Shown here: one piece after another, positions 1,096 through 62,486 of the stretch | How positions within the stretch are numbered: the stretch's first letter is position 1 | Layout of the letters: each line of letters starts with the position of its first letter | NCBI GenBank assembly: GCA_016930055.1 | Contig: JAFGHP010000083.1 | Location: 15,138-79,137, forward strand | Length of the DNA stretch: 64,000 nucleotides | Direction of reading: 5' to 3' | Origin: Candidatus Bathyarchaeota archaeon | Lineage (GTDB): Archaea > Thermoproteota > Bathyarchaeia > TCS64 | Program-made: the position numbers and the translations under genes | Notes under the pieces: generated by a model | What the model was told of the DNA's origin: nothing | Database searches by the model: none | Seen by the model: the letters and a program-made list of their open reading frames with translations, nothing else

Positions 1096-1769
1096 TGATG
1101 TAACTCCATTAATTCATAAATTCTTCGAAGCCTCTCCAAAGGTAATTGACCAGGAGCTACTGCTTCATGTTGATTAGGTGAAGCATATGTCCATTCTCCT
1201 CCTACCAAGGGAGATATTATTCTAGACAATACTCCCGATGTAGACATCCCGAAAGCTATGTTTCCTGGATGATTTTTTAAAAATTCTAAATAAACGATGT
1301 TGTCATAATAATTATTTGCGTTACCAACAATTTTACAAATACTACAACCAGAGTTTTTTGCTCTAGTGTACATTTCTTCCATTTCATATATTGTTGGTGT
1401 TTTATTGAAGTCATGATATGAAATTATTAATTTTGAAGATGTGCTTTGAAGATCTGATGCAACATTAAGTATGTTTGGAGTTGATGCTTCTAAATCAACA
1501 TAAGAAAAACCCGAATTACAAGCATTTATTAAAAGATTAATTCTATCTTTTTCAGGTTTTTTCCATAATCCACCATCATTTTTGATTCGTGCAGTTGCTA
1601 TTAACGGGATTTTTGTTACTTCAACGATTTTATAGGGATTAATATCCTTTTTGCTGTAATCGAAACGTATTTCTATTAAATCTGGAGATAGAGGTTCTAG
1701 TCTTTTAATCGTTTTTATTATTTTTGATATATTTAATGCTTGTAGAGTAACACAAATCTTGGGATTCAT
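1092..1769 (-). CDS. aroD: 3-dehydroquinate dehydratase, type I
   Basis: The 225-aa ORF has type I DHQase length and TIM-barrel-like sequence. It lies between aroB and aroE with 4-nt overlaps. Confidence 0.85.
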   Translation of the reverse strand: MNPKICVTLQALNISKIIKTIKRLEPLSPDLIEIRFDYSKKDINPYKIVEVTKIPLIATARIKNDGGLWKKPEKDRINLLINACNSGFSYVDLEASTPNILNVASDLQSTSSKLIISYHDFNKTPTIYEMEEMYTRAKNSGCSICKIVGNANNYYDNIVYLEFLKNHPGNIAFGMSTSGVLSRIISPLVGGEWTYASPNQHEAVAPGQLPLERLRRIYELMELHQ

Positions 1770-5598: not shown

Positions 5599-6243
5599 TC
5601 AGTATAATTTTACTGCCTCTCCCATACTTGTTTTAATAAACATTGTTTTAATGTTTCCGAAACCACGTTTAGTAGAGCTGGTTAAGTTACTTATAATTGC
5701 TTCAATATTTTGAGCAACTTCTTCATCCGTCATTGATTCTTTTCCAACCATACAATGAACGAAAGGTTTGTCTCTACTTCTTAGTACCACTGCTTTTCTT
5801 TCTCTCTCAATGACATTATCCACTGGAGCTTGAGATGGTACAGGTGTTGGCATTTTGCCACGTGGACCTAATATGGGACCAGCTACACGACCCACTGTTG
5901 GCATTAGTGGGGCTTCACTTATGAAGATATCAAAGTCTTTTAGCCTCTTTTTTGCTGCTTTTTTATCTTTAGCAAGCTCATTTAATTCCGTTGGTTCAAT
6001 AACTTCATCTGCTCCACTTCTACGAGCTCTTAAAGCAAGGTCTCCACCTGCAAAAACAAGAACTTTTTGTCCCTCTATTCCATTAGGTAATTGGACACGT
6101 AGATTAATCCTATTTTCTGGACGTTTCATATCGAGTTCACGGAGGTTAATGACGAGCTCAATTGTCTGCTCGAAGTTGCGTTTAGGTGAGGCTTTTCTAG
6201 CCTTCGATATCGCTGTTAAAATTTGTTGTCTTGGTAACGACAT
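5599..6243 (-). CDS. rpl1: 50S ribosomal protein L1
   Basis: 214 aa, with L1 signature and the conserved L11-L1-L10 order. Confidence 0.9.
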   Translation of the reverse strand: MSLPRQQILTAISKARKASPKRNFEQTIELVINLRELDMKRPENRINLRVQLPNGIEGQKVLVFAGGDLALRARRSGADEVIEPTELNELAKDKKAAKKRLKDFDIFISEAPLMPTVGRVAGPILGPRGKMPTPVPSQAPVDNVIERERKAVVLRSRDKPFVHCMVGKESMTDEEVAQNIEAIISNLTSSTKRGFGNIKTMFIKTSMGEAVKLY

Positions 6244-11798: not shown

Positions 11799-12623
11799 AT
11801 GATCGAACCAATATTGAAATGGGCTGGGGGAAAAAGAAGTCTCATACCAGAAATAATATCATTGTTACCTAAAGATTATAGAAACAAAAAATATCATGAA
11901 CCCTTCTTTGGTGGTGGAGCCTTATTTTTTGAGATCCAGCCTAAATCTGGTTCTATCAATGATATAAATAGACAATTAATGAATTTTTATAGGGTAATTC
12001 GAGATAAACCAGAAGAAATCATTGAATTAGCATCTAGTTATAAATACGAAAAAGAAGAATTTTACAAGCTTCGAGATAAATATAATACACCAAACCTTAC
12101 AGATGTTGAATATGCCTCACTTCTACTATACTTGAACAAAACTGCATTCAATGGATTATATCGTGTAAACTCAAAAGGGCTATTCAATGTACCTTTTGGT
12201 AGATATAAAAACCCGACAATTGTAGATGAAAATCGAATAAAAAAAGCTAGTAAAGCTCTAAAAAATGTCGAAATCTTAAACAAAGATTTCTCTTATGTAA
12301 TTGATTATTCAAAAAAAGGTGATATCTGTTATTTTGATCCACCCTATTCCCCATTAAATAAGACTGCTTATTTCACTTCATATTCGTCAGATGGTTTCAG
12401 TTGGGAAGATCAAATAAGACTTAGAGACACTTGTATTTCACTTGATAAAAAAGGTGTTTTATTTGTTTTAAGTAATTCATATGTTAAGGAATTAGTTGAA
12501 GAATACCGAAAAATAGATTCATTTTATATTAAAACTGTTAAAGCTAATCGAGCAATTAATTCAAAAGCTAGTAATCGAGGACCCATTAACGAGATTCTTG
12601 TAACAAATATACTTGTAAAATAA
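11799..12623 (+). CDS. Dam-family (D12 class) DNA N6-adenine methyltransferase
   Basis: The 274-aa ORF has the N-terminal KWAGGK motif and the DPPY catalytic motif (FDPPYSP), and collinear similarity to E. coli Dam and DpnM-type enzymes. Confidence 0.85.
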   Translation: MIEPILKWAGGKRSLIPEIISLLPKDYRNKKYHEPFFGGGALFFEIQPKSGSINDINRQLMNFYRVIRDKPEEIIELASSYKYEKEEFYKLRDKYNTPNLTDVEYASLLLYLNKTAFNGLYRVNSKGLFNVPFGRYKNPTIVDENRIKKASKALKNVEILNKDFSYVIDYSKKGDICYFDPPYSPLNKTAYFTSYSSDGFSWEDQIRLRDTCISLDKKGVLFVLSNSYVKELVEEYRKIDSFYIKTVKANRAINSKASNRGPINEILVTNILVK

Positions 12624-13271
12624 TTATTTTTTAACTTTTTCAAATACTAGAAAATATGTATGCATAATAACTGAACAAGGACGATTTTTTACTTGAAAAG
12701 CAGTTGGCGACATACGATGATGAATAAATATGAAAGTATCTATTAATCTAAAATTTGAAAGTTTACTAACCCAAGTTATATGGTGAGCATAAAATTTACG
12801 CTCTTTTGTTTGATATTGATCAGCACATTTTAAAATGAGCTTACCATCATCTTTTAACCAATCAGGAAATTTATCATTAGCAAAAACTATGAACCATAAT
12901 AAATCATCATAGGTTTGTATATAATCTCCGTAATCCTGTCTTCTGGGATCATTTGAGTTTTTATAACCAAAGAAATAAGGTGGATCATAAATTATACCAT
13001 CAAATTGTTTATTAAAATTTAGATCTTTGATAGCGCTAACAACTTCTTGTCCATAATTAATTTTATCTGAGAAAATTACTTCTCCATATTCACTAATTTT
13101 ATTACTTCCATTAATATCTGGTTTATAATATTCAACCCAAAGATGCTTTTTACCACATGTAGGATCCAGAATTATCTTATTTTTTGTAGGAGGAATATGA
13201 AAATTTAAGATATCATAAAAATATTCGCCTAATTTTTTATTGGCATTGTGAGATAAAGGATATTTAGCCAT
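12624..13271 (-). CDS. putative small DNA methyltransferase (N6A/N4C, DPPY motif)
   Basis: The 215-aa ORF has an AdoMet motif-I-like DPTCGKK followed by IIYDPPYFFGY (motif IV). It is convergent and abutting the Dam-like gene and divergent from the MutH-like nuclease gene. Confidence 0.55.
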   Translation of the reverse strand: MAKYPLSHNANKKLGEYFYDILNFHIPPTKNKIILDPTCGKKHLWVEYYKPDINGSNKISEYGEVIFSDKINYGQEVVSAIKDLNFNKQFDGIIYDPPYFFGYKNSNDPRRQDYGDYIQTYDDLLWFIVFANDKFPDWLKDDGKLILKCADQYQTKERKFYAHHITWVSKLSNFRLIDTFIFIHHRMSPTAFQVKNRPCSVIMHTYFLVFEKVKK

Positions 13272-13424
13272 TTTAAAGATCTAGATCATAAGAATAAAAA
13301 AAGATATGTGTATTTTATCTATCTAAAGTTAGTTTAAAAAAATATATTACTTTCAATATTTTAAAAGTTTTTTAATAAATTCGGTATTCAGAAAAAATAA
13401 ATCTTTTAAGATTAAACTTAAATC

Positions 13425-14030
13425 ATGAATCGACAAGAAGCTATTGAAAAATTAAATTGTTTAATAAATCAGGATTTAGTTGAACTAGCAAAAAAATTTA
13501 ATGTTACTATCTGGACTGGAACAACTAAAAATAAAGGGTGGGCTGGACATACAATTGAAAAATATTTAGGTTTAGAACTAAATTCAACTCAAAAACCTGA
13601 TTTTGGTGATTGGGAATTAAAGATAGTTCCGTTACTATATGATTCATTTGGTAAATTAAAAGTAAAAGAGACAATGGCAATTACAATGATTAATCCTTCT
13701 CATGTTATTCAACATGATTTTGAAGATAGTCATTTATTAGCAAAATTAAATAGACTTGTTATATGTTCAAGAATATTTGAAAGTCAATCTGAAGATCATT
13801 CTTTATTTCATAGTGCAGCGATTTTTGATTTATCGAATAATGTGTTATTTGAACAAGTAAAAAAAGATTACGAAGAGACTAAAAGTTGTATTATTACGAA
13901 TGGATTTAATAGTTTATCAGGTAATATGGGTCAACTTGTACAACCAAGAACAAAAGGACCAGGTCATGGAAGTACTAGTAGAGCTTTTTATGCTAGAATT
14001 GGGTTTGTAGAAAAAATCTTAAAATTATAA
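13425..14030 (+). CDS. MutH/Sau3AI-family GATC-type endonuclease (putative restriction subunit)
   Basis: The 201-aa ORF reads KNKGWAGHTIEKYLGLELNSTQKPDFGDWELKIVPL, aligning with MutH KGWIG..LE.WLG......P...ALGVELKTIPV including the D..ELK catalytic motif. The C-terminus (PRTKG...SRAFYARIGFVEKI) matches the MutH ...LPRGFYLKKNF tail. Confidence 0.8.
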   Translation: MNRQEAIEKLNCLINQDLVELAKKFNVTIWTGTTKNKGWAGHTIEKYLGLELNSTQKPDFGDWELKIVPLLYDSFGKLKVKETMAITMINPSHVIQHDFEDSHLLAKLNRLVICSRIFESQSEDHSLFHSAAIFDLSNNVLFEQVKKDYEETKSCIITNGFNSLSGNMGQLVQPRTKGPGHGSTSRAFYARIGFVEKILKL

Positions 14031-15199: not shown

Positions 15200-15496
15200 A
15201 TGGAATACATGTATGCCGCTATGCTCCTCTACAGCGCAAAAAAACCAATTACAGAGGAGTCAGTTACAGCGATACTTAATGCCGCCGGTGTCACAGCTGA
15301 CGGTATACGCGTTAAGGCACTTTGTGCTGCACTTGCAGAAGTCAACATTGAAGAGGCTCTCAAGGCACCAGTTTTCGCTACAGCAGCAGCTACACCAGCT
15401 GCAGAAGTTAAGAAAGAAGAAGCAAAACCTGCAGAGAAGCCTAAAGAAGAGAAGAAAGAAGAAGATCTTCAAGGTTTGGGCGCACTCTTCGGTTAA
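15200..15496 (+). CDS. rpl12: 50S ribosomal protein L12 (acidic P1 stalk protein)
   Basis: The 98-aa ORF has an [21 protein letters not shown]-terminus, an Ala/Pro hinge, a KKEE-rich acidic tail and a GLGALFG C-terminus. Confidence 0.9.
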
Positions 15497-15596
15497 CCCC
15501 CTTCAAATTTTCTTAAATTATAATAATAGTATCCTGTTTTTGGAGTATATCCCAAAATGCTTGGGAGTATCTTAAAGGTAACTGAATGAAGTGTAG

Positions 15597-17372
15597 GTGG
15601 TAAGGTTGATCAATTCTATAAAGTTAAAAAAGATGTTTCTGGAATTCTTTAAGATAAATGGGCATGAAGTAATCACTAACGCATCTCTTATACCAGAGAA
15701 TGATCCTTCAGCTCTATTCACTTCAGCAGGGATGCATCCACTCGTGCCATATCTGCTTGGTCAGCCACATCCAAATGGTAGAAGGCTCGTGAATGTACAA
15801 AAATGCCTTAGAACCAGCGATATAGATGAGGTTGGTGATAGCTTCCACCTAAGCTTTTTCGAGATGTTAGGCAACTGGTCACTAGGAGATTATTTCAAAG
15901 AAAAATCTATTCCATGGAGTTACAAGTTTCTTACAGAAAAAAAGTGGCTAGGTATAAATAAGGAGAGGCTCTATGTCACCGTTTTTGCTGGAGATGAAAA
16001 GGTACCTAGAGACACTGAGAGCGCAAAAATCTGGGAGGAACTTGGTATCCCTAATGAAAAGATATTCTATTTGTCAAGAAAAGACAATTGGTGGGGTCCG
16101 GTGGGAAATACTGGACCTTGTGGACCTGATACGGAGATATTTTATGATACTGGTAAAGAGCCATGTGGAACCGATTGTAAACCTGGTTGTTCCTGTGGCA
16201 AGTATAATGAGATATGGAACAATGTTTTCATGGAATACAACAAGACTCTTGATGGTGAGTACATTCCTCTTCATCAGAGAAATGTAGATACCGGTATGGG
16301 GGTAGAGCGAACTGTTGCGGTCCTTCAGGGTAAGGACAATGTTTACGATACTGAGATATTTTTCCCTCTTATAGAGAAGCTTAAGAAACTCATGGATGTA
16401 GATGAGGTTCCAGAAACCCAAACTAGAAGCATTAGAGTAATATGTGACCACATACGTGCAGCGACATTTATCCTAGCTGAAGGGATAACACCCCTTAATG
16501 TAGAGCAAGGGTATGTCTTGAGAAGGCTAATCAGAGGAGCTATCAGACATGGCAGAATGATAGGATTAGATAAAGAATTCCTCAGTAAGTTATCCCAGAT
16601 TGTGATACTGTCGTATAATGATGATTACCCTTATCTTAAGCAGAAGGAGGAGTTCATTGTCTCAGAGCTAGTGAAGGAGTATAACAGATTTAGTAATACA
16701 TTAGCAAGAGGTTTGAACAGATTCAATAGGATTGCTGCTGAGAAAAAGAAGATTGATTCCAAAGATGCTTTTCTCCTCTATCAGAGCTTTGGCTTCCCTA
16801 TTGAGATAACAAGAGAACTAGGGTATGAGAGTGGTATTGATGTCGATGTGAATGGGTTCCACGAGGAGCTAATGAAACATCAACAGGTTTCTAAGGCTGG
16901 TGCTGACAAAAGGTTTGGTAGTGGCTTAGCTGATACTGCAGAAGCAACAGTTAAGTTACATACAGCAACACATCTACTAAATGAGGCATTGAGACAGGTT
17001 CTTGGTAAAGAGATCTACCAGAAAGGCTCAAACATAACACAGAAACGCCTCAGGTTTGACTTCAACTTCGACAGGAAAATTACAGATTACGAACTAAAAC
17101 AAGTAGAGGATTTGGTTAACAAGCAAATTAGTAAAGCTCTTCCCGTAAAAAGAATTGAGACGACTTTGGATGAAGCAATCGAGATGGGTTGCCAAGCTGT
17201 TTTTGAACAGAAGTATGGTGAGAAGGTCTCTGTTTACATTATAGACGATTTCTCAAAGGAGCTCTGTAGTGGTCCTCACGTAGAAAACACCCGTGAACTC
17301 GGTAGATTTAAGATAGTTAAAGAAGAAGGGATCTCAGCAGGAGTACGACGGATAAGAGCTATTTTGGAATAA
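15597..17372 (+). CDS. alaS: alanyl-tRNA synthetase, bacterial-type, lacking the C-Ala domain
   Basis: The 591-aa ORF has an N-terminus (FLEFFKINGHEVITNASLIPENDPSALFTSAGM...FFEMLGNWSLGDYFK) nearly collinear with E. coli AlaRS. The editing domain carries the HxxxH (HTATH) and CxxxH (CSGPH) Zn motifs, and the ORF ends right after the editing domain. The true start may be GTG at 15597 or the ATG at 15633. Confidence 0.85.
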   Translation: MVRLINSIKLKKMFLEFFKINGHEVITNASLIPENDPSALFTSAGMHPLVPYLLGQPHPNGRRLVNVQKCLRTSDIDEVGDSFHLSFFEMLGNWSLGDYFKEKSIPWSYKFLTEKKWLGINKERLYVTVFAGDEKVPRDTESAKIWEELGIPNEKIFYLSRKDNWWGPVGNTGPCGPDTEIFYDTGKEPCGTDCKPGCSCGKYNEIWNNVFMEYNKTLDGEYIPLHQRNVDTGMGVERTVAVLQGKDNVYDTEIFFPLIEKLKKLMDVDEVPETQTRSIRVICDHIRAATFILAEGITPLNVEQGYVLRRLIRGAIRHGRMIGLDKEFLSKLSQIVILSYNDDYPYLKQKEEFIVSELVKEYNRFSNTLARGLNRFNRIAAEKKKIDSKDAFLLYQSFGFPIEITRELGYESGIDVDVNGFHEELMKHQQVSKAGADKRFGSGLADTAEATVKLHTATHLLNEALRQVLGKEIYQKGSNITQKRLRFDFNFDRKITDYELKQVEDLVNKQISKALPVKRIETTLDEAIEMGCQAVFEQKYGEKVSVYIIDDFSKELCSGPHVENTRELGRFKIVKEEGISAGVRRIRAILE

Positions 17373-17513: not shown

Positions 17514-20429
17514 ATGATTGACTGGAAAAAAATTGAAAATAAATGGCAACAGCGTTGGGCTGAAGCAAGAGTTTTTGAAACCGATCCCGACCCTGATAAG
17601 CTTAAGTATTATCTAACTGTAGCATATCCATATCCTAACAGTCCTCAACACATAGGTCATGGAAGAACTTACACACTAACTGATGTACATGCTAGATTAA
17701 TGCGAATGAAAGGATATAATGTACTCCTACCAATGGCATGGCATTATACAGGTACTCCATTATTTGCTATGGTTGAAAGACTAAAAGAAAAAGATCCAAG
17801 TATAATAGATACGTTTTGTAACCTCTATAATATCCCTGAATCAAAACTACCTGAATTAGAAACACCTGTATCTATGGCAAGGTATTTTGCTAAAGAAATT
17901 AAAACTGGAATGCAGAAAATTGGTTACAGTATTGATTGGAGAAGAGAATTTACAACAATTGATCCATATTATAGCAAATTTATTGAATGGCAATTTACTA
18001 AATTAAGACAACGCGGTTACATAACTCAAGGAAGCCATCCAGTAGGGTGGTGCCCTCATTGTGGTAATCCAGTAGGGCAACATGATACGGTTGGTGATAT
18101 GGAACCAGAAATTGAAGAATTTACATTAATAAAATTCAGAAAAGGAGAACTAATTTTTCCTGCAGCAACACTTCGCCCAGAAACGATTTATGGCGTAACC
18201 AATATGTGGTTAAACCCCGATGCTCTTTATGTAGAAGCTAAAATCAATGGTGAAATATGGCTAATAAGTGAAGAAGCAGTTAATAAATTAGAATATCTAG
18301 GTCATAAAGTTACAATTTTATCAGAATTGAAGGGTTCGCGTTTTATTGGTCAAAAGTTAGTTAATCCAGCAACTGGTAAAGAAATAATAATTTTACCCGC
18401 CTCTTTTGTTAACCCTAGAAATGCAACGGGAGTTGTAATGTCAGTACCTGCACATGCTCCTTTCGATTATGTTGCTTTAGAACAACTTAAAAAGGAAGTA
18501 AAAGCTAATCCTGATTCATTTAAAATTAAACCTAGTGATATTAACAAGTTAGATCCAATTAGCATAATTGATGTCCAAGGTAACAACGAGGGTTTAGCTG
18601 TTGAAATCGTTAAAAAAATGAAAATAACTTCACAAGATAGCCAAGACCTTGAAAAAGCAACTAAAGAAGTTTATGGCACCGAATATCATGGAGGCAGAAT
18701 GAAGACAAATACGGGTACTTATAGTGGTTTAAGTGTACAGGATGCTAAAGAAGCAGTAAAAATGGATTTAATTGCTAAAAGTGACGCATCAATAATGTAT
18801 GAACTTAATGAACCAGTTAAATGTAGATGTGGAACAGATGTCTTAGTAAAAATATTCGAAAACCAATGGTTCATTAATTATGGTGATCCAGAATGGAAAA
18901 GGTTAGCAAAAGAAAATATTGAAGAAATGGAGATCATCCCCCGAGAATTAAAACAAGAATTCGTAAATGTAGTTGATTGGTTAAAAGAAAAAGCCTGCGC
19001 AAGGAAAGCAGGCATGGGTACACCTTTACCATGGGCAAAAGATTGGATTATTGAATCACTAAGTGATTCAACAATATATATGGCGTATTATACTGCGATA
19101 AATGGTTTAAACGAAATTAAACCTAAGCCTGAGCAACTAACAGAGGTTTTTTGGGATTATGTATTCTTGGGTAAAGGTACATCTTCAAATATCGAAATTG
19201 AAACAGGCATACCTAAATCTAAATTAGAAGAGTTACATAATGAATTCGAATATTTTTATCCACCAGAGGCAAGACATAGTGGTAGAGATCTAATTCCTAA
19301 CCACCTTACTTTCATGATATTTATTCATGATGCAATTTTTCCACACGAAAAATGGCCTCAAGGAATAGTTGTAAATGGATCAGTTTTAATGGAAGGCCAA
19401 AAAATGAGCAAGAGCCTAAATAATATTATACCATTAAGTAATGCTATTGAAAGATTTGGGGCAGATCCTTTAAGATTAAGTTTAATGATAACAGCGGAAC
19501 CACTAAAGGATGCTGATTTTAGCCCAGATTTAGCTAAAAGCATGGGTGATGTTTTAGAAAAACTCTATAATCGAGCTCAAAGAATTATTAAAGAAAAACA
19601 TGAAGATGATGTAGAATTTACTGAAGTAGATTTATGGATGATGAGTAGACTTCAAAACCATATACAAAATGCAAACGAAGCCATGATTGATATGAAAGTA
19701 AGAAAAACCATTCACTCAGCAATTTATGACTTAGAACAGGATTTAGAATGGTATACAAAAAGAATTTCTTTTGATAAAGAGCATGCTATTAGACGTAAAT
19801 CAATAAGTAAAGTAGAGTGGGAAGTCCTTTCCTCACAAATACGAATGTTAACACCTTTTACACCACATATCTGTGAAGAGATATGGGAGGAGATGGGTTT
19901 TGACCCCTTCGTATGTTTTGCAGAATGGCCTATAGTAAAGAATGAACTGGTTAGACCCGATGCAGAAGAATTAGAGTTAATGATAAAAACTTGCATAGAA
20001 GATGTTCAAAATATTATCAGAGTAACGGGCATAAAACCTAATTTAATTCACTACTATACAGCGGATAATTGGAAATGGAAAATGTATCTTAAAGCACTAC
20101 AACTACAGGAAAGAGGGCAACTTGAAATTGGTTTATTAATTCAAGAATCTTTCAAAGACGATGAACTAAAAACAAAAACTAAGGAAGTCCCGGGGATGGC
20201 AAGAAGTTTAGTTGACGAAATAAAAAAAATTCCAGAAAAAACTCTTGGCATAAAAAAATCTTTAGGTCATGTTAATGAAGTTAAATTAATACAGGATTCG
20301 ATAAACTTCATCAGAGCTGAATTTGGATGTGATGTGACTGTATCATCAGAAAGTGATCCATGGATAATAGACCCTAGTAAACGAGCTTCAAAGGCTAAAC
20401 CATACCGACCAGCTATCTATGTCGAATAA
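17514..20429 (+). CDS. leuS: leucyl-tRNA synthetase (archaeal/eukaryal type)
   Basis: 971 aa with the HIGH motif (PQHIGHGRTY), the KMSKS motif (QKMSKSLNN) and the CP1 editing insertion. The domain organisation is archaeal. Confidence 0.9.
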   Translation: MIDWKKIENKWQQRWAEARVFETDPDPDKLKYYLTVAYPYPNSPQHIGHGRTYTLTDVHARLMRMKGYNVLLPMAWHYTGTPLFAMVERLKEKDPSIIDTFCNLYNIPESKLPELETPVSMARYFAKEIKTGMQKIGYSIDWRREFTTIDPYYSKFIEWQFTKLRQRGYITQGSHPVGWCPHCGNPVGQHDTVGDMEPEIEEFTLIKFRKGELIFPAATLRPETIYGVTNMWLNPDALYVEAKINGEIWLISEEAVNKLEYLGHKVTILSELKGSRFIGQKLVNPATGKEIIILPASFVNPRNATGVVMSVPAHAPFDYVALEQLKKEVKANPDSFKIKPSDINKLDPISIIDVQGNNEGLAVEIVKKMKITSQDSQDLEKATKEVYGTEYHGGRMKTNTGTYSGLSVQDAKEAVKMDLIAKSDASIMYELNEPVKCRCGTDVLVKIFENQWFINYGDPEWKRLAKENIEEMEIIPRELKQEFVNVVDWLKEKACARKAGMGTPLPWAKDWIIESLSDSTIYMAYYTAINGLNEIKPKPEQLTEVFWDYVFLGKGTSSNIEIETGIPKSKLEELHNEFEYFYPPEARHSGRDLIPNHLTFMIFIHDAIFPHEKWPQGIVVNGSVLMEGQKMSKSLNNIIPLSNAIERFGADPLRLSLMITAEPLKDADFSPDLAKSMGDVLEKLYNRAQRIIKEKHEDDVEFTEVDLWMMSRLQNHIQNANEAMIDMKVRKTIHSAIYDLEQDLEWYTKRISFDKEHAIRRKSISKVEWEVLSSQIRMLTPFTPHICEEIWEEMGFDPFVCFAEWPIVKNELVRPDAEELELMIKTCIEDVQNIIRVTGIKPNLIHYYTADNWKWKMYLKALQLQERGQLEIGLLIQESFKDDELKTKTKEVPGMARSLVDEIKKIPEKTLGIKKSLGHVNEVKLIQDSINFIRAEFGCDVTVSSESDPWIIDPSKRASKAKPYRPAIYVE

Positions 20430-61034: not shown

Positions 61035-62486
61035 TTAATAAGTTCTTGATACGTATGCTATATATTTAGCAGAATTTTCACATAGAATACAATTATCAGT
61101 TGGTTCTTCAAGGTCAAGCCATAAAGTTCCTCTAATTTCACCACTGACTTTATCTTTTAGAGCTTCAGCGCAACCTTTATTTCCACACCAATTGATTCTT
61201 ACTAGTTTTCGTTGATCCATAAATTCCTTTAATTCATCCAAAGTGTATGCAGTCGCCATTCGTTCATTCATAATTTTCTTGCTTCTTTCATTCAAAGTCT
61301 GATTAATTGATTTGAATAATTCATGGACTGTATCAACTAAGTTTACTAAATCTGCTTTACTTTTTTTGAAAGTATCCCGGCGTACGAATGTTACAGTTTT
61401 TGACTCTGCTTCTCTTGGACCTATCTCAATACGTATTGGAACTCCATTCATTTCCCATTTATAGAATTTTTCTCCTGGTCTTAAACGATCATCTTCGTCA
61501 AGTACTGTTCTAATATTATTTGATGTTAAATTATGGTAAATTAGTTTAGCATATTCTTTTGATATTTGTTCTTTACCTTTAACGGGGATTGGTATAATTA
61601 CAACCTGTTTTGGAGCGACGATTGGTGGGAGAATTAAACCGTGGTCATCACCATGTTGACTTATCAAACACGCGAGGGTTCTACCAAAACCCATTCCATA
61701 ACATGTATTTGTGCAAAGCTCCTGTTTTCCATCTTCGTTTTCATACGTCATTTCGAAGGCTTTAGCAAAATTATTACCTAATTGATGTACTGTGCCAATT
61801 TGATTACTTTTACCATCAGGATTCCAAGCATCAAATGCAACACTATAATCAGCTCCAGCAAATTTATCAAAATCTGGTCTCCTAAGTTTAATATAATTAA
61901 GAGATAAGGAATCATAAACTTCACTGTATATCCTTATTGCAGTTCGTATCTGCTCTTCTGCTTCATTATATGTAGCATGCGCGGTATGCCCCTCATTCCA
62001 TAAAAACTCACGTCCACGATATAGTGGCCTAGTTGCCTTAGTTTCGTATCTGTAAACGTTACATGTCTGATTCATTAATAAAGGCAGATCTGCGTGGCTT
62101 CGTATCCACATTTTAAACATAGGATATATAGCTGTCTCACTGGTGGGTCTAAGAACCAGTCTGCGTTCCAACTCATTTTCTCCAGCATGTGTAATCCAAA
62201 ATACTTCCCCACTAAACCCTTTTATGTGGTCCTCTTCTTTTTGGAAAGCATCTTCTGGAATAATAACAGGGAACTGCATTGGTTCATGTCCTGATGAATC
62301 TAATTTTTCTTCCAACATAGAAATGATTCTTTTAACTATGCTGAAGCCCCATCCTGTATAGACTGTGAATCCTTTGACGGGGTATCTGTCGTCAACTATT
62401 TTTGCTTCAAGCAGGACATTGTCATACCATTCACTAAAGTTTTCTTTCGGAATCAATGTTTTCTGAATAGTTTTGTTGGCTGCCAT
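61035..62486 (-). CDS. proS: prolyl-tRNA synthetase (archaeal/eukaryal type)
   Basis: The 483-aa ORF has a class II core and a C-terminal Zn-binding domain (CGNKGCAE...CILCENSAKYIAYVSRTY). Confidence 0.9.
   Translation of the reverse strand: MAANKTIQKTLIPKENFSEWYDNVLLEAKIVDDRYPVKGFTVYTGWGFSIVKRIISMLEEKLDSSGHEPMQFPVIIPEDAFQKEEDHIKGFSGEVFWITHAGENELERRLVLRPTSETAIYPMFKMWIRSHADLPLLMNQTCNVYRYETKATRPLYRGREFLWNEGHTAHATYNEAEEQIRTAIRIYSEVYDSLSLNYIKLRRPDFDKFAGADYSVAFDAWNPDGKSNQIGTVHQLGNNFAKAFEMTYENEDGKQELCTNTCYGMGFGRTLACLISQHGDDHGLILPPIVAPKQVVIIPIPVKGKEQISKEYAKLIYHNLTSNNIRTVLDEDDRLRPGEKFYKWEMNGVPIRIEIGPREAESKTVTFVRRDTFKKSKADLVNLVDTVHELFKSINQTLNERSKKIMNERMATAYTLDELKEFMDQRKLVRINWCGNKGCAEALKDKVSGEIRGTLWLDLEEPTDNCILCENSAKYIAYVSRTY

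Follow-up and report, generated by a model that had tools for sequence, protein, structure and literature searches.

A small, bacterial-type alaS in the slot of the archaeal-type gene in Bathyarchaeia

Results

Two forms of alaS alternate in one slot

The 64,000-nucleotide stretch of contig JAFGHP010000083.1 analysed here (Candidatus Bathyarchaeota archaeon; hereafter the window) contains an alaS gene whose product, an alanyl-tRNA synthetase (AlaRS), is small and of bacterial type. We consider it likely that this open reading frame (ORF) encodes a working enzyme that sits in the ancestral alaS slot, between the genes for ribosomal stalk protein P1 and leucyl-tRNA synthetase (LeuRS), after displacement of an archaeal-type alaS, that it came recently from a higher-GC Bathyarchaeon, and that it probably provides the only AlaRS of its host. 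Enzymes of this type and their transfer to archaea are already on record, and the window AlaRS is a member of the group named small-AlaRS in a preprint by Alvarez-Carreno et al. (10.1101/2023.05.29.542759). What is new is the carriage of this form by Bathyarchaeia in the rpP1-alaS-leuS slot, the presence of an archaeal-type alaS in the same slot of relatives, a remnant of the displaced gene in one relative (locus L013), and a tree conflict accompanied by an anomalous GC content at third codon positions (GC3).

The order P1-small alaS-leuS is common, within contig reach, to the window and nine related Bathyarchaeia loci (L002-L009 and L013; 47-60% GC), in which P1 is seen in eight cases and leuS in eight, and whose products are 70-79% (AlaRS) and 64-72% (LeuRS) identical to those of the window; three additional downstream genes are common to the window, L006 and L008. 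P1 lies upstream of the small alaS in L002-L008, L013 and L014, and likewise upstream of archaeal-type alaS in relatives. The latter genes came from a scan of metagenome contigs in which a degenerate DNA pattern stood for the N-terminal Zn finger of the A. fulgidus type, and P1-archaeal-type alaS (~910-920 aa)-leuS was found in L114, whose alaS matches the archaeal profile TIGR03683 at 1092 bits and whose LeuRS is 66% identical to that of the window, in L102/L154 (LeuRS 66-71% identical), and in the more distant L107, L150, L153 and L168 (LeuRS 49-55% identical). A gene for a small Zn-ribbon protein, which precedes P1 in the window, has homologues at the equivalent place in L005, L013, L085, L102 and L154. 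Because carriers of the small and of the archaeal type share these flanking genes, both alleles occupy one slot among close relatives.

In L013 (JADHWN010000008.1, Bathyarchaeota BS750m-G28), a 69-codon ORF at 5808-6017 (+) separates P1 from the small alaS. Its product aligns with residues 1-64 of the archaeal AlaRS of L114 at 62.5% identity (64 aa), with the start MQVPPDEF in both, is 68% identical over 56 residues to L085, and matches positions 2-59 of TIGR03683 (E 7.5e-10). In a set of 5.8 billion proteins, none had enough 5-residue words in common with the 69-aa product to count as a candidate. Three of its four Zn-finger cysteines are gone (CPHCG...CGDAPC has become CPSRG...YGDASY), and the junction falls ~10 nt 5' of the TTG start of the small gene, with the GGTGGT motif in front of that start kept. 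Judged from these alignments, the ORF is what is left, in decayed form, of codons 1-64 of an archaeal-type alaS. An assembly chimera would join a functional 5' end, so the lost cysteines argue against one. A search for the same kind of remnant in the other loci and between P1 and alaS of the window (15497-15605) gave only chance-level matches. Since the L013 remnant is archaeal-type and decaying, the direction of change runs from the archaeal to the small type, and the locus presents a clear case of in-situ displacement of a ~910-aa archaeal-type alaS at its ancestral slot. The initial annotation had proposed that alaS was replaced by transfer from bacteria; the shared slot and the remnant bear out the replacement, and the bacterial source is taken up below.

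The opposite course, in which archaea would have inherited the small form vertically from early on and the relatives would have gained their archaeal-type genes later, is very improbable. The presence of the small form in several archaeal phyla and the lack of resolution deep in the tree would suit such a history, but an archaeal-type alaS fills the slot in the distant outgroups L107, L150, L153 and L168, the decaying sequence in L013 is archaeal-type, the GC3 anomaly of the window marks the small gene as the import, and the small forms group with bacterial AlaRS.

Nor do we give any real weight to an artefact, that is, a bacterial fragment mis-assembled or mis-binned onto an archaeal contig, or a dead gene. 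The contig is metagenome-assembled, but it carries archaeal genes on both sides of alaS, the equivalent arrangement recurs in nine independent assemblies, and the frame is intact with invariant catalytic residues. The window AlaRS matches MBN1683429.1 ('alanine--tRNA ligase [Candidatus Bathyarchaeota archaeon]') at 100% identity, and an identical protein is present in a second, independent assembly (P0002, Logan). Archaeal genes of the window include those for P1, LeuRS, ProRS, aIF5B, archaeal RecJ, archaeal GlmM and GlmU, Kae1, Bud32 and Ham1, and the earlier statement that the LeuRS and ProRS are archaeal-type agrees with their profile matches (Table 1).

A bacterial-type enzyme without beta-barrel and C-Ala

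The full-length profile of this enzyme type, NF002436/PRK01584 ('alanine--tRNA ligase'), matches the window AlaRS at 895.1 bits (cut-off 529), with protein residues 8-591 covering profile positions 4-593 of 595. (Residue numbers refer to a 591-aa frame counted from GTG 15597.) The bacterial profile TIGR00344 also scores above its cut-off (619 against 457 bits), its best stretch covering only profile positions 2-431 of 847, and the archaeal TIGR03683 stays far under its own (237.9 against 744.7 bits). Structures in the PDB rank in the same way, with the E. coli and Aquifex enzymes at ~315 bits, human at 294, and Pyrococcus and Archaeoglobus at 128-156. In alignments with E. coli AlaRS (from NC_000913) and with the archaeal-type reference of A. 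fulgidus (3wqy), identity over corresponding parts is 39% and 47% with the former and 24% and 32% with the latter, and alignment finds no counterpart of the N-terminal Zn finger of A. fulgidus (residues 1-60). The catalytic region is thus bacterial-type and lacks the archaeal Zn-finger N-terminus, both as the initial annotation had it; its grouping with bacterial rather than archaeal AlaRS is likewise supported by the TIGR00344 and TIGR03683 scores, the PDB scores and the small-form clade described below.

The same note had described the protein as stopping after the editing domain and so lacking C-Ala. C-Ala is indeed missing: Pfam finds tRNA-synt_2c (residues 10-460) and tRNA_SAD (544-586) and no DHHA1/C-Ala or other domain, and E. 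coli residues 699-876 (helical linker and C-Ala) have no counterpart. But the beta-barrel half of the editing domain (E. coli 446-557) has no counterpart either. Alignment blocks found only in long forms are inserted after window residues 433-444, and against the AlaX-M profile the window AlaRS covers positions 93-233 only, as compared with 1-232 for archaeal-type AlaRS. The motifs HTATH (455-459) and CSGPH (557-561) are present, and the chain ends 30 residues past the second. The architecture is one of bacterial-type class II catalytic and tRNA-recognition domains, a 12-residue linker and an AlaX-S-like editing core, with neither beta-barrel nor C-Ala (domain limits in Table 1). A structure prediction from 45 close homologues was unusable (mean pLDDT 54, pTM 0.42) and supports nothing.

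The window AlaRS is not a one-off truncation but belongs to the small-AlaRS group. At least 120 metagenomic homologues are 77-82% identical to it, nearly all of them 579-598 aa long, and in an alignment of 45 of these about half of the columns are invariant.

A probable bacterial origin of the small-AlaRS family

A species-level genome scan, from which the taxonomy of relatives is taken, gave more than 570 loci with a relative of the window AlaRS; the distribution described here is that of the best 80. Among these, Bathyarchaeia are 58-79% identical to the window, Aenigmatarchaeota 58-63%, Nanoarchaeia and Woesearchaeota 54-57%, and Methanomassiliicoccales and other Thermoplasmata 52-53%, and 53 loci at 52-57% come from bacterial genomes (Christensenellales, Oscillospiraceae, other Clostridia, Clostridium zeae, Anaerocolumna, Shimazuella, Spirochaetes, Anaerolineae and Patescibacteria). 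The size is ~590-600 aa throughout, and NF002436 scores of 884-951 bits were obtained for L013, L058 (Methanomassiliicoccaceae), L066 (Clostridium zeae) and L010 (Aenigmatarchaeota). Small-AlaRS had been defined by its catalytic, ATL and editing domains and the lack of cradle-loop barrel and C-Ala, and had been reported from CPR (Candidate Phyla Radiation), Thermoplasmatota, DPANN and Asgard genomes, Bathyarchaeia not being named; bacteria-specific insertions and a tree were put forward in favour of its transfer from bacteria to some archaea (10.1101/2023.05.29.542759). Literature searches combining Bathyarchaeota or Methanomassiliicoccales with alanyl-tRNA returned nothing relevant.

In a neighbour-joining tree built from the 80 labelled loci, from E. 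coli and from unlabelled representatives at 50% identity, 173 sequences in all (corrected distances, 579 columns, 100 bootstraps), the small forms make up one group among bacterial sequences (85%), save for a few long sequences inside it. The window AlaRS falls within a Bathyarchaeia clade (100%), to which a clade of Aenigmatarchaeota is sister at 97% (98% when a subset was run with 1000 replicates). The Methanomassiliicoccales stand apart in a clade of their own (100%), whose sister is a Clostridium/Anaerocolumna group (72%). Archaeal carriers thus fall into at least three separate groups, which argues that the small form entered archaea more than once. Because 53 of the 80 closest loci are bacterial, the archaeal carriers are split, and the Methanomassiliicoccales stand beside Clostridia, the family is most likely bacterial in origin; because the window gene lies inside the Bathyarchaeia clade with Aenigmatarchaeota as sister, its own bacterial origin is remote. 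The suggested transfer from bacteria therefore holds for the family, and the recent donor was probably another Bathyarchaeon.

A direct acquisition by the window's lineage from a bacterium, with no archaeal intermediate, is accordingly very unlikely. Such an event would fit a family with mostly bacterial members, a protein of bacterial type and a gene whose GC3 is foreign to the host genome, but the nearest relatives are archaeal (Bathyarchaeia at 70-79%, then Aenigmatarchaeota at 63%, against 57% for the best bacterial match), the window sits inside the Bathyarchaeia clade at full support, and the slot, the start region and the Shine-Dalgarno motif are common to the window and its Bathyarchaeia relatives.

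Several loci of this tree are worth recording separately. A few full-length AlaRS sequences of 870-885 aa (P0199, P0200, P0142 and some other representatives) lie inside or beside the small-AlaRS group in the neighbour-joining tree, P0142 carrying the cysteine cluster described below; loss of the two domains may have taken place in the bacterial lineage to which they belong. The small alaS of L014 (963-2822 of JARRMA010000179.1, labelled Bathyarchaeota, 33% GC), just downstream of P1, groups with Aenigmatarchaeota (86-100%) and not with the main clade of Bathyarchaeia, and may represent either a separate displacement or a mislabelled genome bin. An in-frame stop interrupts the small alaS of L022 (206-1999, a Spirochaetaceae genome bin) at codon 434 and may reflect a sequencing error, a split gene or a pseudogene.

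The probable immediate donor and a proposed spread within Bathyarchaeia

Trees of the two neighbouring synthetases disagree. By LeuRS, L013 pairs with L114 (98%), a carrier of the archaeal-type alaS, and L005 belongs to the same group (100%), which is separate from a group of L003, L004, L006, L007, L008 and L009 (100%). By AlaRS, L005 and L013 nest within the alleles of the L003-L004-L006-L009 group, with 99-100% support relative to L008 and 79% relative to L007/L009, and the window too lies outside the L003/L004/L006-L009 group by LeuRS and inside it by AlaRS (79-99%). Pairwise identities show the same disagreement: L005 and L003 are 87% identical in AlaRS and 68% in LeuRS, as compared with 88% and 92% for L006 and L003 and 77% and 90% for L007 and L009.

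Base composition also sets the gene apart. The GC3 of the window alaS is 0.375, the highest of 60 ORFs (mean 0.198, standard deviation 0.045, z = +3.9), in a lineage of 32% GC; it is uniformly high along the gene (0.30-0.48) and falls sharply at leuS (0.213). The GC3 of P1, at 0.333, is the second highest in the window, which may reflect high expression or co-transfer. Given the AlaRS/LeuRS tree conflict and the GC3 of the gene, the immediate donor of the window alaS was probably another, higher-GC Bathyarchaeon, and the import fairly recent, rather than a bacterium. If, as we propose, this allele passes from one Bathyarchaeia lineage to another and ousts the resident alaS on each occasion, the window copy would have come from a Bathyarchaeon. 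A bolder reading, to which we give rather less than even credence, is that the small alaS is a spreading allele that entered the slot on several separate occasions (in the L005, L013 and window lineages at least), each time erasing the 910-aa archaeal enzyme and leaving a monomeric enzyme with neither C-Ala nor barrel as sole AlaRS. Were this so, the small form would be either selectively advantageous or simply very easy to swap in, and both C-Ala dimerisation and contact with the tRNA elbow would be dispensable for cellular alanylation in prokaryotes.

Active sites and the reading of G3:U70

Conservation was counted by column in 117 aligned sequences (11 from Bathyarchaeia, the window among them, 17 from other archaea, 53 small forms from bacteria and 36 long forms). 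The alanine-pocket residues R72, W166, N208, D231 and G233 (R70, W171, N213, D236 and G238 in E. coli, counted with the initiator Met) are invariant in all 117. The editing-site residues H455, H459, Q475, C557, H561 and R584 are all kept in the window and do not vary among the 28 archaeal or the 36 long forms, the sole exception among the 53 bacterial small forms being one Tyr at the second His; unnamed short representatives have a few substitutions. The window alaS accordingly looks functional, as judged by its reading frame and residues.

The G3:U70 identity pair of tRNA-Ala is read in E. coli by N303 and D400 (PMC8583063). The window enzyme keeps the first of these (N301) and has Gln (Q396) in place of the second, a substitution found in 11/11 Bathyarchaeia, 4/4 Aenigmatarchaeota and three of five loci of the Nano/Woesearchaeota type, as against Asp in 49/53 bacterial small forms. 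Loci of the Methanomassiliicoccales/Thermoplasmata (L044, L056, L058, L059, L064, L073, L078 and L079) keep the Asp and have Lys or Arg at the N303 position, the reverse of the Bathyarchaeia pattern. Enzymes without either reader residue are still able to read G3:U70 (PMC10036535).

A cluster of four cysteines (C190-x3-C194-x3-C198-x-C200) takes the place of the E. coli Cys-His box in the catalytic domain. It is present in 20/28 archaeal small and 42/53 bacterial small forms, and was dropped as a candidate novelty of the small family, most long bacterial representatives (23/36) carrying it too.

A candidate mode of action and the case for a sole AlaRS

The window enzyme is predicted to charge alanine onto tRNA-Ala, and would act as a monomer, since C-Ala, the only known AlaRS dimer interface, is missing. 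It would bind the acceptor arm of tRNA-Ala only, reading G3:U70 through N301 and the Gln that replaces the usual Asp, and Ser-tRNA-Ala would be cleared by the AlaX-S-like core at a putative Zn site formed by H455, H459, C557 and H561. In the AlaX work of Sokabe (2005) and of Fukunaga and Yokoyama (2007), the barrel is reported to contribute to the editing of Gly-tRNA-Ala; this activity may therefore be weak in the window enzyme and left to DTD.

That the small enzyme is probably the organism's only AlaRS follows from the occupied ancestral slot and from the L013 remnant. An accessory role, with an archaeal-type alaS elsewhere in the genome and the small copy serving, for instance, in resistance to an AlaRS inhibitor, stress-specific charging or trans-editing, seems unlikely. 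The genome extends beyond the 64-kb view, duplicated aminoacyl-tRNA synthetase (aaRS) genes with auxiliary roles are common (PMC9437257), divergent aaRS alleles can pass through a stage of co-existence (PMC3191353), and cultured bacteria such as Clostridium zeae and Anaerocolumna aminovalerica have a small alaS that may be a second copy there, all of which would fit an accessory gene. But the small gene occupies the slot of the relatives' archaeal-type alaS rather than a new site, the resident gene was destroyed rather than kept in L013, both active sites are fully conserved, and no match to archaeal-type AlaRS, AlaX or C-Ala turned up in the window, nor at up to 6 kb from any of the 80 species loci.

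Several points weigh against the overall reading of a sole, functional, recently imported enzyme. The view of the genome is 64 kb, and a second alaS, an AlaX or a free-standing C-Ala may lie elsewhere. Prokaryotic AlaRS is said in a review to need C-Ala-mediated dimerisation for tRNA charging (PMC8583063); if that need is general, the window enzyme would be poor as a sole AlaRS, and we found no biochemistry on any small-AlaRS in the literature. The remnant was found in one assembly only, and LeuRS is a single-gene proxy for the organism tree that adjoins the transferred gene. The trees are distance-based (neighbour-joining) and their deep backbone has bootstraps below 50%, so the bacterial donor lineage and the number of archaeal transfers are uncertain. 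As to charging, aminoacylation without C-Ala has precedents in the engineered N-terminal fragment Aquifex N453, in human AlaRS deprived of C-Ala, and in the Tupanvirus mini-AlaRS (PMC10036535).

Start, upstream signals and coordinates

The uninterrupted frame runs from GTG 15597 to 17372 (+) and counts 591 aa. The start is most likely TTG 15606, giving 588 aa, a choice that the conserved AGGTGGT and the in-frame stops 5' of the matching TTG in relatives favour: such a stop lies just 5' of the equivalent TTG in five of the nine related Bathyarchaeia loci (L002, L003, L004, L007 and L013), and GGTGGT or GGTGAT stands at the same distance from the start in L002-L005, L007 and L013, with GGTGTT in L006. 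The NCBI annotation places the start at ATC 15609. About 30 nt before the alaS start, a conserved CCTTAAATGAT-like element is found in the window (15575-15590), L002-L004, L007 and L009; L005 and L006 have only a degenerate version, and in L013 it is absent, with the remnant of the old gene in its place. This element may be a promoter (TATA box and TFB-recognition element, TATA/BRE). The ORFs 15973-16287 (+), 16074-16451 (-) and 15213-15575 (+) were set aside as frame shadows of alaS and P1.

Table 1. Coordinates of alaS, its parts and other features of the window
Feature	Position	Strand	Basis
alaS, small bacterial-type alanyl-tRNA synthetase	15606..17372	+	ORF; NF002436 match
AGGTGGT, Shine-Dalgarno-like	15594..15600	+	5 nt upstream of TTG; putative ribosome-binding role
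Aminoacylation and tRNA-recognition (ATL) domains, residues 6-437	15612..16907	+	39% identity to E. coli AlaRS 4-445
Cys cluster C190-x3-C194-x3-C198-x-C200, catalytic domain	16164..16196	+	Putative metal binding
N301 = E. coli N303 (G3:U70 reader), kept	16497..16499	+	Alignment column counts
Q396 at the place of E. coli D400 (second G3:U70 reader), Asp to Gln	16782..16784	+	Alignment column counts
Linker, residues 438-449, replacing the ~112-residue beta-barrel (E. coli 446-557)	16908..16943	+	Gap in E. coli alignment
Minimal editing core, residues 450-591	16944..17369	+	47% identity (450-589) to E. coli 558-698; tRNA_SAD
Ribosomal stalk protein P1 (aL12), upstream flank of slot	15200..15496	+	PF00428
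Archaeal-type leuS, downstream flank of slot	17514..20429	+	TIGR00395, 1016 bits
Small Zn-ribbon protein (DUF6487), upstream of P1	14764..15042	-	PF20097
Family I ProRS	61035-62486	-	TIGR00408, 532 bits
Dam-type D12 methyltransferase	11799-12623		
ORF with DPPY motif	12624-13271	-	
MutH/MvaI-BcnI-like nuclease	13425-14030		

Comparison with known systems

AlaRS has been described as fixed in a four-module design throughout life (PMC10036535, PMC8583063), a view that a widespread natural enzyme without C-Ala and beta-barrel, in the place of the normal gene, challenges. Like the small-AlaRS of the preprint (10.1101/2023.05.29.542759), the window enzyme combines a three-domain layout and bacterial-type sequence with the lack of cradle-loop barrel and C-Ala; that study describes neither genomic context nor same-site displacement, and mentions no leftover of an ousted gene and no within-phylum spread. 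The Bathyarchaeia and Aenigmatarchaeota members have Gln at the E. coli D400 position. With E. coli AlaS (TIGR00344) the window enzyme has in common the alanine pocket, the Zn editing site and 39-47% identity in shared regions, and it differs in lacking the tRNA-elbow contact and the dimer interface and in the D400-to-Gln change. With the A. fulgidus-type AlaRS (3wqy, TIGR03683) it shares the reaction and, in Bathyarchaeia relatives, the genomic slot, but at 24-32% identity and without Zn-finger subdomain, beta-barrel and C-Ala.

Two further systems resemble it in part. The Tupanvirus mini-AlaRS, a naturally occurring enzyme, does without C-Ala and contacts only the acceptor stem, as proposed for the window enzyme; it is eukaryote-derived and also lacks the editing domain and both G3:U70 readers, whereas the window enzyme keeps an editing core and the Asn (PMC10036535). 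Residues 5-134 of AlaX-S (PH0574; 1v4p/1wnu) align with window residues 451-575, and neither protein has the beta-barrel subdomain, AlaX-S being free-standing and the window core fused to a synthetase. The window enzyme is a test case of whether a monomeric AlaRS that binds only the acceptor stem can support a cell.

Among aaRS genes, homeoalleles, or in-situ xenologous displacements, are known for TyrRS, ThrRS, SerRS and LeuRS (Andam and Gogarten, PMC3191353), and replacement by recombination in conserved flanks needs no stage of co-existence (PMC3191353). As in those cases, divergent forms of the same function alternate here in one neighbourhood, and the tree of the allele conflicts with that of a host gene; unlike in those cases, the alaS forms differ by ~320 residues and by two or three domains, belong to different domains of life, and have left a remnant of the displaced allele (in L013). 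We found no report in the literature of AlaRS as a homeoallele pair. At this locus the replacement of an essential gene can be watched almost as it happens, with both alleles in the slot among close relatives, a decaying stub, and a foreign codon composition in the winner. In practical terms, phylogenies of Bathyarchaeia, DPANN and Methanomassiliicoccales are poorly served by AlaRS as a marker, and marker sets for genome completeness that are based on TIGR03683 will miss the alaS of genomes with the small form.

Other observations

No tRNA-Ala gene was found near any Bathyarchaeia alaS, such genes being found only at Methanomassiliicoccales and Christensenellaceae loci; tRNA-Ala(UGC) lies within a few kb of alaS in five of the eight Methanomassiliicoccales/Thermoplasmata loci listed above. 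An ARAGORN call of a 92-nt tRNA-Tyr at 1623-1714 (+), which has no match from Rfam, lies inside a well-supported type I 3-dehydroquinase gene on the opposite strand (1092-1769) and is probably a false positive. An AT-rich stretch (11799-14030; ~27% GC), ~1.2 kb upstream of the P1-alaS slot, holds the methyltransferase, DPPY-motif and nuclease genes of Table 1 and looks like a GATC-type restriction-modification island.

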